NCBI GenBank assembly: GCA_964478005.1
Contig: CAYZGJ010000002.1
Location: 1-41,005 of the forward strand
DNA length: 41,005 nucleotides
DNA from: an uncultured Candidatus Peribacteria bacterium
Lineage (GTDB): Bacteria > Patescibacteriota > Gracilibacteria > Peribacterales > Peribacteraceae
Direction: 5' to 3'
In this document: in pieces, positions 1,806 to 22,442 of the stretch
Layout: the number at the start of each line of letters is the position of its first letter
Position numbering within the stretch: the stretch's first letter is position 1
Program-made: the position numbers and the translations under genes
The notes under the pieces: model-generated
What the model was told of the DNA's origin: nothing
Seen by the model: the letters and a program-made list of their open reading frames with translations, nothing else
Database searches by the model: none

Positions 1806-1894
1806 GAATGAATAATGGATAATGAATAATTGATAATGGGAATGAACCGTATCCACTCAATCATTATCCATTATCCATTGTCCATTGTCCATTT
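1806..1894. repeat. Inverted pair of heptamer arrays (AATGRAT / ATTATCC family) forming an intercistronic hairpin
   Basis: Left arm 1806-1840 gaatgaataatggataatgaataattgataatggg. Right arm 1861-1894 tcattatccattatccattgtccattgtccattt. The arms are imperfect reverse complements with a 20-nt loop. Confidence 0.8.
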
Positions 1895-2363
1895 CCAGAA
1901 ACCATCCCTCCCCCACCGCCGCCGTCCGCGCTTCGCCGCGGTTGACTTCCAGTGCGTAGCGGGCGGCACCCAACGAGAGCGTCGTCGGACAGGGATCTGC
2001 GTCGCAGGGTTCCATCGTGGCGCGCGACACGAAGCGCCCCGCCGGGTCGAAGAAGAGGATGTCGAGCGGGATCAGCGTGTTCTTCATCCAGAAGGACCGC
2101 TCCGCGTCATCGGGGAAGACGAAGAGCATGCCGGCGCCCGCGGGCAGAGCGGACCGGAACATCAATCCCGCCTGCCGCTCCCCGGGGTCATCGGCGATCT
2201 CCACCGCAATCGTGACGCGCTCCCCCGCCGGCCCCGTCAGCACGACGACGCCCTCCCGGAGAACGGTCTCCACGGAAGAAAGGCGCAGGACGGAGAGGCC
2301 CAGGAGGACGATCAGGAAGACAAGGAGGACGATGATGGCAAGGTTCTGCGAGGAGCTCGTCAT
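1857..2363 (-). CDS. DUF192 (COG1430) domain protein with N-terminal TM helix
   Basis: ATG 2363 in ORF 1857..2456. GLMFRSALPAGAGMLFVFPDDAERSFWMKNTLIPLDILFFD is the DUF192 core. ATGA overlap with the rpe stop. The last 12 codons (EMDNGQWIMDND) are encoded by the heptamer array. Confidence 0.8.
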   Translation of the reverse strand: MTSSSQNLAIIVLLVFLIVLLGLSVLRLSSVETVLREGVVVLTGPAGERVTIAVEIADDPGERQAGLMFRSALPAGAGMLFVFPDDAERSFWMKNTLIPLDILFFDPAGRFVSRATMEPCDADPCPTTLSLGAARYALEVNRGEARTAAVGEGWFLEMDNGQWIMDND

Positions 2364-3497: not shown

Positions 3498-4271
3498 ATG
3501 CCTGACCGCCGCCCCCTCATCGCCGCGAATTGGAAAATGTATGCCCCGCCGGACGGATGGGACGCCGACGATTCGCCGTATCATTCCACCAAAGACGTCG
3601 ACGTCATCGTCTTTCCCACGATGCTCGATCTCGTCGCCTGCATGAGAGAGGAACTGATCACCGGAGCGCAGTGCGGCCGGGCTGAGGAAGCGGGCGCCTT
3701 CACCGGCGATGTCTCCATGCGGATGCTCGCGCACATCGGCTGCAGCCACGTCCTCTGCGGCCACTCCGATCGGAGAGCGTTCCATGGCGAAACCGATGCG
3801 GACATCGCCAAGCAAGTCGTCGCCGCGCTGGAGGCGGAGATGATCCCGATCCTGTGCATCGGCGAAACAGGAGAAGAACGGAAAGCGGGACGATCCGAAG
3901 AAGTCATCAGAAGGCAACTGGAAGCAGTGCTGACGGAAATGCAACATGCACAATGCAACATGCAACATGATGGATTCGTCATTGCATATGAACCTGTCTG
4001 GGCCATCAGCCGCGGCGATCCGTCGACTCCCTCCGCGACGCCCGAAGAAGCGCAGCGCATGCATGCCTTCATCCGCGCAACGCTCACATCTCACCACTCA
4101 CATCTCACATCCGTCCGCCTTCTCTACGGCGGCTCGATGAACGCCGACAACGCCGCCGCCCTGCTCGCACAACCGGACATCGACGGCGGACTCGTCGGTG
4201 GCGCATCCCTCAATCCAAAGGAGTTCCAATCGATTGTGGACGCCGCCGCATCGGCGTACGGTGGGCATTAG
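3498..4271 (+). CDS. tpiA: Triosephosphate isomerase
   Basis: IAANWKM, CGHSDRR, IAYEPVWAI, YGGS and VGGASL motifs. Confidence 0.93.
   Translation: MPDRRPLIAANWKMYAPPDGWDADDSPYHSTKDVDVIVFPTMLDLVACMREELITGAQCGRAEEAGAFTGDVSMRMLAHIGCSHVLCGHSDRRAFHGETDADIAKQVVAALEAEMIPILCIGETGEERKAGRSEEVIRRQLEAVLTEMQHAQCNMQHDGFVIAYEPVWAISRGDPSTPSATPEEAQRMHAFIRATLTSHHSHLTSVRLLYGGSMNADNAAALLAQPDIDGGLVGGASLNPKEFQSIVDAAASAYGGH
3939..3966 (+). repeat. In-frame heptamer array (ATGCAAC x4) inside tpiA
   Basis: atgcaac|atgcaca|atgcaac|atgcaac encodes ...EMQHAQCNMQH... in the variable loop before IAYEPVWAI. Confidence 0.85.
4083..4110 (+). repeat. In-frame heptamer array (CTCACAT x4) inside tpiA
   Basis: ctcacat|ctcacca|ctcacat|ctcacat encodes ...LTSHHSHLTS... 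in the variable segment before YGGS. Confidence 0.85.
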
Positions 4272-4299
4272 TCATTATCAATTATCCATTATCCATTCC
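4272..4299 (+). repeat. Heptamer array (CATTATC/ATTATCC family, 4 units) filling the tpiA-SPFH spacer
   Basis: tcattat|caattat|ccattat|ccattcc, followed by tccc-ATG (4304). Confidence 0.8.
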
Positions 4300-4303
4300 T
4301 CCC

Positions 4304-5059
4304 ATGCCCTTCCTCCCCACCCTCTTCCTCCTCGGCCTCCCCCTCCTCATCCTCATCCTGCTCCTCATCCGCCAGGTGGACCAGTACGAGCGGGGCATCG
4401 TCCTCACCATGGGGAAATTCTCGACCATCTGGCAGCCGGGCTGGCACATCATCATTCCCGTCTTCCAGCGGCTGATCAAAGTAGACGTCCGCGTGAAGGC
4501 CGTCGACGTGCCGGATCAGGAAGCCATCACCAAGGACAACATTCCCGTCCGCATCAACGCCGTCATCTACTACCGCGTGCAGGATGCTGCGAAAGCGGTG
4601 ATCGACGTGGAAGACTTCTTCTTCGCCGTCTCGCAGCTGGCGCAGACGACCATGCGCAATGCGGTGGGCGAAGTGACGCTGGATGAACTGCTCGCGCAGA
4701 AGAAGGACGTCAGCGAGCGCATCAAGCAGGTGGTGGACAGCGTCTCCGACGCGTGGGGCATCGACGTGCACTCGGTGGAGCTCAAGGACATCATCCTGCC
4801 CGAGAGCCTCAAGCGGACGATCGCCAAGGTGGCGGAAGCCGAACGCGAGAAGCGCGCGGTCATCATCAACTCCGAGGGCGAAGTGCTGGCCGCGGAGAAC
4901 ATGGCCAAGGCCGCCCACACCCTGGCCGCCTCCCCCGGCGCGCTGCACCTGCGCACGCTCCAGAGCATCAACGACTTAAGCTCGGATCAATCCAACACGA
5001 CCGTGTGGATGATTCCCGTGGAAGTGCTGAAGGCGCTGGAGGGGCTCGCCAAGAAATAG
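4304..5059 (+). CDS. SPFH/Band-7 (stomatin/prohibitin-like) membrane protein
   Basis: N-terminal TM helix, then QYERGIVLTMGKF...ITKDNIPVRINAVIYYRV...RNAVGEVTLDELL...WGIDVHSVELKDIILPESL. Typical SPFH domain. Confidence 0.9.
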   Translation: MPFLPTLFLLGLPLLILILLLIRQVDQYERGIVLTMGKFSTIWQPGWHIIIPVFQRLIKVDVRVKAVDVPDQEAITKDNIPVRINAVIYYRVQDAAKAVIDVEDFFFAVSQLAQTTMRNAVGEVTLDELLAQKKDVSERIKQVVDSVSDAWGIDVHSVELKDIILPESLKRTIAKVAEAEREKRAVIINSEGEVLAAENMAKAAHTLAASPGALHLRTLQSINDLSSDQSNTTVWMIPVEVLKALEGLAKK

Positions 5060-22346: not shown

Positions 22347-22352
22347 GAAAGC

Positions 22353-22442
22353 AATGGATAATGGACAATTGATAATGGACAATGATCTTCTTCATTCTCT
22401 TTCTACAAGTCATTATCCATTATTCATTATCAATTATCCATT
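22353..22442. repeat. Inverted pair of heptamer arrays (AATGGAT / ATTATCC family) forming the adk-map intercistronic hairpin
   Basis: Left arm 22353-22385 aatggataatggacaattgataatggacaatga. Right arm 22410-22442 tcattatccattattcattatcaattatccatt. About 28 of 33 positions are complementary. Confidence 0.85.

Follow-up and report, generated by a model that had tools for sequence, protein, structure and literature searches.

The window analysed here is a stretch of 41,005 nt (contig CAYZGJ010000002.1, positions 1 to 41,005, assembly GCA_964478005.1) from an uncultured Candidatus Peribacteria bacterium. It carries tpiA, the gene for triosephosphate isomerase (TIM), and inside this gene lie two short head-to-tail arrays of heptamers. 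The gene and the arrays, the latter as reported by Tandem Repeats Finder (TRF), are as follows:

3498..4271, + strand: tpiA, triosephosphate isomerase, 257 aa, frame intact (open reading frame (ORF) list; Pfam PF00121)
3937..3969, + strand: array 1, (A)ATGCAAC ATGCACA ATGCAAC ATGCAAC ATG, period 7, 4.7 copies (TRF)
4083..4111, + strand: array 2, CTCACAT CTCACCA CTCACAT CTCACAT C, period 7, 4.1 copies (TRF)

The original prediction had placed in-frame heptamer arrays at 3939-3966 and 4083-4110 of tpiA, and the sequence, TRF and the ORF all agree. The heptamer units of array 1 occupy 3939-3966, with the period running on to 3969 and an exact 14-nt period over 3938-3964 (TRF); array 2, read as its reverse complement, is of the GATGTGA type. 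Both tracts are free of stops. Array 1 reads E147-MQHAQCNMQH-D158 (codons 148-158) and array 2 reads L196-TSHHSHLT-S205 (codons 196-205), in agreement with the predicted peptides (E)MQHAQCNMQH(D) and LTSHHSHLTS. The pattern of unit, variant, unit, unit that had been noticed is likewise present in both tracts: in each it is the second unit that varies, in its last two bases. The tracts exceed what chance would give: 5000 shuffles of the tpiA codons produced no period-7 run as long as 24 nt.

The product matches PF00121 (TIM) over positions 1-244 of the 245-position profile (E 3.4e-71; 240.1 bits against a cut-off of 20.1), and has catalytic N11, K13, H89 and E165 together with the phosphate-binding motif Y210-G211-G212-S213. 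In an alignment of 15 relatives the catalytic residues and YGGS are invariant, except for G212, which is nearly so. AlphaFold2 predicts a (beta/alpha)8 barrel (predicted local distance difference test score (pLDDT) 89.3, predicted template modelling score 0.90), and Foldseek aligns this model with more than 50 solved TIMs at TM scores of 0.83-0.86. The named relatives are Candidatus Peribacteraceae and Peregrinibacteria. At 90% identity the window sequence forms a cluster by itself; the three members of the sister cluster differ only in their called start. As an aside on the same enzyme, the catalytic lid at window positions 4005-4040 (residues 170-181) reads WAISRGDPSTPSATP, where most TIMs have WAIGTGKxATP, and a four-residue insertion after loop 6 (pLDDT 74 at residues 171-180) is common to many Peribacteraceae TIMs.

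The predicted structure shows where the tracts fall. Array 1 corresponds to the final turn of helix alpha5 (133-150) and the loop before beta6 (161-164), the strand of VIAYEPVW that carries E165; the loop residues 151-160 have a pLDDT of 75. Array 2 covers the end of helix alpha6 (182-199) and the loop before beta7 (207-210), which leads into RLLYGGS. In the standard topology of the TIM barrel the alpha-to-beta loops lie on the face opposite the catalytic beta-to-alpha loops. In the model, then, both tracts are alpha-to-beta loops at the N-terminal ends of strands, facing away from the active site. Compared with the Burkholderia TIM 4g1k, the protein is longer by just four residues at array 1 and by two at array 2; the region of array 1 has 49 residues (44-47 in ordinary relatives) and that of array 2 has 25 (23 in those relatives). 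Because so little length is added, 'overwritten' is a fair word for what has befallen these loops. The model thus bears out the earlier claim that the tracts replace the segments that vary between TIMs without breaking the frame: these are variable loops at helix ends, before beta6 and beta7, and their sequence has been replaced rather than merely extended.

A hairpin between the two tpiA arrays was considered and rejected: the RNA fold of 3925-4125 (z-score -1.66) shows no pairing of one array with the other. In the relative with locus L021 the two tpiA arrays are direct repeats, not inverted ones, and do not have the arrangement of the hairpin arms of Rickettsia palindromic elements (RPEs).

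Module anatomy across the genome

The genome assembly to which the window belongs (1.13 Mb in 95 contigs, 61% GC, 91.5% complete) is rich in sequences of this kind. Genome-wide, TRF returns 463 period-7 rows, whereas a third-order Markov control built from this genome gives 44; no comparable excess exists at any other period that is not a multiple of three. A dedicated period-7 run finder recovers 366 arrays, some tenfold more than a Markov control; the tallies range over 352-366 arrays, with 82 canonical units. Their lengths are not distributed geometrically: 119 arrays measure 31-33 nt, 57 of them exactly 32 nt, and minor peaks at 18, 25, 39, 46 and 54 nt follow the rule 7k+4. The length mode is identical for arrays in genes, at gene edges and between genes.

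Alignment of the two largest families defines the dominant module as (AATGNNN)x4+AATG, that is, five nearly invariant cores separated by variable 3-nt spacers. Mismatches to an array's own consensus amount to 0.5, 0.5, 3.4 and 8.8% at the A, A, T and G of the core, and to 26, 14 and 14% at the three spacer positions. The module also has defined ends: 92 of 153 arrays start on the core A (30 more start one base earlier) and 90 of 153 end on the core G. The pattern AAT[GT]N3 x4 AAT[GT] has 138 separate matches and none in the control. As regards copy-and-paste of identical modules, 124 of these are distinct, and the 23 identical pairs exceed the 1.4 expected under a null model that ignores family structure. 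The units average 38% GC in a 61% GC genome. Assignment of the arrays to the variable region of a diversity-generating retroelement (DGR) was rejected, the core adenines being the least variable positions of all (0.5%).

By approximate count, 88 arrays lie 30 nt or more inside a called gene, 93 at a gene edge and 185 outside, giving a density outside called genes some five times that inside. Genome-wide, an AATG-array is followed by a CATT-array in 26 inverted pairs, against two pairs in the opposite order; the loops of 23 of the 26 span 19-61 nt, with sizes clustering at ~20-28 and 48-50 nt. The AATG/CATT inverted pair is thus a directional hairpin element. A bias with respect to the transcribed strand, which would point to an element acting as RNA, is weak (42 vs 26 between co-directional genes, 15 vs 25 inside genes). 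The window itself holds two inverted pairs and, directly behind tpiA, an intergenic array (TRF and family listing):

1807..1897, no strand assigned: inverted pair in hairpin form, AATGGAT-type 1807-1839 plus CATTATC-type 1862-1897 (TRF)
22352..22442, no strand assigned: inverted pair of the AATGGAT/CATTATC family, 22352-22384 plus 22411-22442
4273..4297, + strand: intergenic CATTATC array, the other strand of AATGGAT, which is the commonest family

The last of these fills the spacer from the stop codon of tpiA (4269-4271) to the start of an SPFH/Band-7 gene at 4304; the other neighbours of tpiA are rpiB and rpe on the minus strand.

In two respects these arrays fit the heptanucleotide class of long simple-sequence repeats (LSSRs) and short tandemly repeated repetitive (STRR) sequences: 7-nt units stand head to tail above chance, and there are many dispersed, mainly intergenic families. 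The homogeneous units and freely variable copy number that mark slippage are absent, in view of the sharp 31-33 nt mode and the conserved cores: the heptamer arrays of this genome are not ordinary slippage microsatellites.

The tpiA tracts belong to this set. Array 1 is a degenerate (AATGNNN)x4+AATG module of the AAATGCA family (30 arrays in the genome), and its 31 nt place it on the 31-33 nt mode; CATG replaces AATG in three of the five cores, which have lost the first A that is elsewhere invariant. Array 2 belongs to a family (GATGTGA-type) that is rare in the genome and is not of the AATG type. By family membership and length mode the tracts are to be classed with the intergenic arrays, as the original prediction had supposed, and at the genome's own density of ~25 arrays per 100 kb the presence of two in one gene is unremarkable.

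Nor is tpiA the sole gene to host such modules. Arrays of at least 24 nt that lie at least 40 codons from either gene end number 44. Hosts confirmed by Pfam include DnaE (inside HHH_6), SecA (Wing/Scaffold), transketolase (an inter-domain linker), Der/EngA (linker), a Mur ligase (middle domain), a SufC-like ABC ATPase, a GT4 protein (linker), MurB and an NAD-epimerase; in IleRS and DnaX arrays were recognised by eye. Eight genes besides tpiA encode the peptide xMQNAKCKMQNx or something close to it; tpiA has the variant MQHAQCNMQH. In nine of nine genes with an AAATGCA module the first ATG is used as a codon (e.g. C9:18059-18089, C95:775-807, C66:4221-4252), and where in-gene AATGGAT copies are read in the AATG sense, they have the single spacer variant by which the TAA is lost. 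Such avoidance of stops argues for translation of the tracts. As to the other two phases of AAATGCA, one gives TGA with the usual 'a' as right flank and the third is open yet never seen; avoidance of a second Cys is one possibility.

The two slots among relatives

We compared 22 Peribacteraceae tpiA loci. In the TIM tree the window sequence groups with L021 and G006 in a clade with support 100/99. The two closest relatives both carry arrays at the two positions, here termed site 1 and site 2:

P0002 (= G006, loci L002/L022), 78% protein identity: site 1 AAAATGC, four copies, perfect; site 2 CCCAAAT
P0003 (locus L021), 66% protein identity: site 1 CTCTCAA, seven copies; site 2 CTCTCCA, five copies

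The CCCAAAT array of L022 and the CTCTCCA array of L021 are in phase with array 2 of the window and occupy the same codons. Site 2 arrays are confined to this three-member clade. Site 1 has a much wider distribution: a fresh or decayed array is found there in at least 11 of the 22 genes, including five of six in the other clade of the genus, and the units differ among lineages:

Site 1, G004: ACCAGCT, the same array being decayed in G007
Site 1, G010: AAATCGC
Site 1, G001: AATACYC
Site 1, G003: GAGGCTA, decayed
Site 1, G002 (L011) and G022 (L013): TCAATTC, interrupted by a common insert
Site 1, G019: AGCTCAN, decayed

The short-loop TIMs of G012, G023, G020 and G018 have no arrays at the tpiA slot. 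The idea that the arrays might be lineage-specific replacements therefore does not survive alignment of the orthologs: the site 1 slot is present in at least half of the genes and site 2 is clade-wide. As a separate observation, the insert in the TCAATTC array measures ~30 nt and opens with cctgcc(c)ggc in L011 and L013 alike; the array of these two genomes appears to have received an insertion.

Codon-aligned nucleotide identities between the window and its closest relatives show how the slots have changed:

Window vs L022: rest of gene 0.79; array 1 0.78; array 2 0.58
Window vs L021: rest of gene 0.72; array 1 0.39; array 2 0.64

The difference at array 2 between the window and L022 is periodic: phase is conserved, and every one of the four units differs at positions 2 and 5. 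That eight such substitutions should have arisen independently is implausible, which means that a change at the level of the unit has been propagated, by concerted evolution or rewriting. The sampled relatives also show the ~32-nt mode, each with cores of its own (AGCT in G004, AATAC in G001), and the tpiA unit of each matches the families of its own genome. Conservation of slots extends to intergenic DNA: in all three close relatives the short stretch from tpiA to the SPFH gene is taken up by arrays, with other units in L022 (3823-3897, GTATTGG) and L021 (1147-1225, ATACTCC).

Could each lineage have received its array separately, from a mobile 32-nt module, with no ancestral array and no concerted evolution? 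The wholly different units, matched to each genome's own families, and the standard module length, as for inserted elements, are what recurrent independent insertion predicts, as is array 1 of L021, whose identity to its sisters is just 0.39-0.50. Against this, array 1 of the window and L022 are as similar as the rest of the gene, the phase of array 2 is kept while its two substitutions are periodic, G004 and G007 hold a single array in fresh and decayed form, and G002 and G022 share the same insert-broken array. Moreover, at densities down to 3.5 arrays per 100 kb, repeated strikes on one 40-nt site are unlikely unless targeted. We regard recurrent insertion as very unlikely.

The original prediction had also pointed out that, with a period of 7, a slip in copy number would shift the frame. 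Another rival reading makes the tracts a contingency (phase-variation) locus in which slippage by one unit toggles tpiA on and off. Seven is indeed not a multiple of three, and neither mutS nor mutL was found in the genome at its 91.5% completeness. The tracts themselves, however, are short (4-5 units) and imperfect, and the genome-wide distribution of lengths is sharply peaked at 32 nt rather than spread; the frame is intact in all three array-bearing relatives, and the sister species has identical tracts on four contigs. Contingency tracts are long and perfect and lie in surface, restriction-modification or dispensable genes, whereas the target here is a central glycolytic enzyme, and modules also occur in DnaE, SecA, Der and the like, where switching would be lethal. 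MutS, finally, is missing from array-free family members too. A role as a switch is accordingly very improbable indeed. Loss of mismatch repair was likewise rejected as the cause of the arrays. Some genomes of the class that have MutS hold arrays too, and of the 25 Peribacteraceae (family f1) genomes searched a single one, G001, gave a hit to MutS_V, weak and partial; members without arrays in 80 kb lack it, while several other families of the class possess it.

There is next to no chance that the tracts are an artefact of assembly or binning, produced by a repeat-induced mis-join within tpiA. This is a 95-contig short-read draft and repeats can mislead assemblers, but tracts of ~30 nt are below read length, the ORF is full-length and is predicted to fold as a TIM, and independent assemblies of relatives carry arrays at the same codons.

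Together these analyses make it likely that the tpiA tracts are resident copies of dispersed Peribacteraceae modules of ~32 nt and 7-nt period, tolerated in loops and turned over at the level of DNA. Modules accumulate between genes and would survive within a gene only if free of stops, frame-keeping and placed in a permissive loop or linker; those in tpiA would be read through as 10-11 low-complexity residues, leaving the enzyme intact, and are presumably harmless to it. The slots would be old, site 1 being genus-wide and beyond and site 2 common to the three closest relatives, and their content would be rewritten as DNA, substitutions in the unit being copied into all units with phase conserved. 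Arrays diverge faster than the flanking codons, and the unit in a slot tends to match the families of its own genome. The homogenising step may be slippage or conversion within the array, or replacement by another module.

Several points weigh against this account. Vertical inheritance with concerted change is not cleanly separable from repeated re-insertion at a tolerant site. The genome samples of the relatives are small (14-207 kb), and the counts of arrays inside, at the edge of and outside genes come from a crude, codon-usage gene caller with 71% coverage and longest-ORF starts. Translation of the tpiA tracts is probable to the extent that an open frame and the avoidance of stops indicate it. 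Lastly, the sharp five-core length mode and the 50-fold difference in conservation between core and spacer are unlike what plain replication slippage predicts.

If modules do turn over in this manner, then a repeat process acting on DNA, and not selection on the peptide, would rewrite, repeatedly and at two fixed positions, loops of an enzyme that ranks among the most conserved known: a natural case, and a clean one, of protein loops being made and remade by junk-like repeats. The tracts would then also map those loops of the TIM barrel that tolerate arbitrary replacement by 10-11 residues. At a practical level, annotation can go astray on such tracts, which invite false calls of low-complexity domains and of start codons, and alignment-based phylogenies of the candidate phyla radiation (CPR) can be disturbed by them.

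A candidate protein partner

The anatomy of the module raises the possibility of a dedicated protein partner, and the Avd-like family PF05635 is a candidate. The genome (G000) contains six copies, whereas PF05635 occurs in one of 14 control genomes; in the class, 30 of 41 genomes have it in several copies (up to 24). The six copies are:

C48:2986-3300
C60:4565-4879
C31:12722-13036
C52:7143-7457
C21:731-1036
C14:15325-15612

An array lies within 100 nt of five of the six genes, and three are bracketed by inverted arrays, each of another unit family; the share of the genome within 150 nt of an array is 6.7%. The C48 copy is recognised by TIGR02436 (four helix bundle protein) with 113.6 bits, the Avd model matching weakly. 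Its closest solved homologue, PDB 2gsc (XCC0516; E 4e-22), has five chains, and from the locus tag we take it to come from Xanthomonas campestris, which would give that species a PF05635 protein too. Xanthomonas campestris has been reported as heptamer-rich (PMC4692102, PMC4679880). PF05635 resembles Avd, the accessory protein of DGRs (PMC10053308), and Avd is a pentameric barrel whose inter-protomer crevices take up flipped-out RNA bases (bioRxiv 10.1101/2023.10.23.563531). The match between five cores and a pentamer is suggestive.

A survey of PF05635 and arrays covered 29 relatives plus G000, with samples picked regardless of PF05635. Arrays were present in 14 of 19 PF05635-positive genomes and in three of 11 negative ones (Mann-Whitney p 0.012, Spearman 0.48), a correlation drawn from small samples by statistics that ignore phylogeny. 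There are exceptions in both directions: G017 and G033 have many copies without an array in the sample, and G023 and G032 have arrays without PF05635. We treat the association as a lead, not a result. The genome also encodes two reverse transcriptases (RTs; PF00078, C3:8207-8806 and C19:17430-18116), both below every specific NCBIfam cut-off; neither gene adjoins tpiA or a PF05635 gene.

It is conceivable, if doubtful, that a pentameric PF05635 protein binds one core per protomer or crevice, in a paralogue- and lineage-specific manner, and that together with the repeats, and perhaps with orphan RTs, it writes or homogenises the modules. Were this true it would explain the five-core length, the turnover of units in slots and the four-unit preference seen in Xanthomonas and Nostoc, and would provide a function for an orphan protein family as well as a mechanism for an orphan repeat class. 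A related reading takes the modules to be functional cis-elements, that is, five-core recognition arrays for the candidate pentamer, and the tpiA copies to be kept or rewritten through that interaction instead of just being tolerated. Recognition is favoured by the layout of the module, with five nearly invariant cores every 7 nt, spacers that are free and a length that is constant, and also by the neighbourhood of the genes, the five-chain homologue and the survey. Set against these are the cores of array 1, whose loss of the first A in three of five resembles decay rather than maintenance, array 2, which is not of the AATG type at all, the lack of a clear transcription-strand bias, and the exceptions and limits of the survey given above. 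That the tpiA copies serve as recognition elements is unlikely. PF05635 is a concrete and testable candidate for the array-making process.

Comparison with known repeat systems

Among the long simple-sequence repeats of many prokaryotes, those with heptanucleotide units have been described as the most abundant (Mrazek, Guo and Shah 2007, as summarised in PMC4679880 and PMC4692102), and STRR sequences as tandemly repeated heptanucleotides of heterocystous cyanobacteria, known from Calothrix PCC 7601 (ref. 39 of PMC4692102). LSSRs and STRRs resemble the present arrays in numbering hundreds of dispersed short arrays in several unit families, enriched between genes, whose generation is unexplained. 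They are homogeneous tracts of variable length, in contrast to modules of ~32 nt with five conserved cores and variable spacers. Also different are the setting (AT-rich arrays in a 61% GC, 1.1-Mb CPR genome, dozens of them in frame in housekeeping genes) and the orthologous slots with lineage-specific turnover of units. No description of such arrays turned up when the literature was searched for heptamer repeats of Peregrinibacteria or CPR.

The GGGNATC repeats of Xanthomonas and Nostoc (Rehm et al. 2015, PMC4692102) are likewise heptamer arrays spread through the genome and mostly intergenic, and they share the preference for four units, which was ascribed there to G-quadruplexes. AATGNNN units have no G-tracts, and that explanation cannot apply here. 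The GGGNATC repeats are, moreover, reported as under-represented in coding regions. TAACTGA repeats of marine Beggiatoaceae (MacGregor 2015, PMC4679880) are also heptamer arrays, of two to six copies and mostly upstream of genes, for which in-frame translation in reverse orientation, into the 7-residue periodic peptide LSVISYQ, was considered; they differ in having one dominant unit, and neither turnover in conserved slots nor a five-core module is reported there.

Repetitive extragenic palindromic (REP) sequences, their hairpin doublets (REPINs) and the associated RAYT genes (Bertels and Rainey 2011, PMC3116915) offer a parallel of another sort: short dispersed repeats, inverted hairpin pairs, and repeats that flank an associated gene. 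REPs, however, are not 7-nt periodic, and RAYT is a transposase, whereas PF05635 is without known catalytic activity and mobility is putative here. The contingency loci of Haemophilus and Neisseria (PMC2651432, PMC8262952) share a non-triplet tandem repeat in or beside a gene, but their tracts are long, perfect and polymorphic, in surface or restriction genes, as against short, imperfect tracts of fixed length in genes of core metabolism and replication.

A further parallel is offered by the RPEs, palindromes of ~100-150 bp with one consensus that lie in frame within genes. Like the tpiA tracts, they are selfish or neutral repeats that persist in essential genes as added surface peptide; unlike them, the modules described here are tandem heptamers of 32 nt in many unit families.

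The tpiA tracts are thus ordinary for their genome; the repeat class to which they belong is not. Heptamer repeats as such were already known, and the interest lies mainly in the five-core anatomy, which reopens the 35-year-old question of how STRR-type repeats originate, in the concerted turnover of in-frame slots and in the candidate Avd-like partner.

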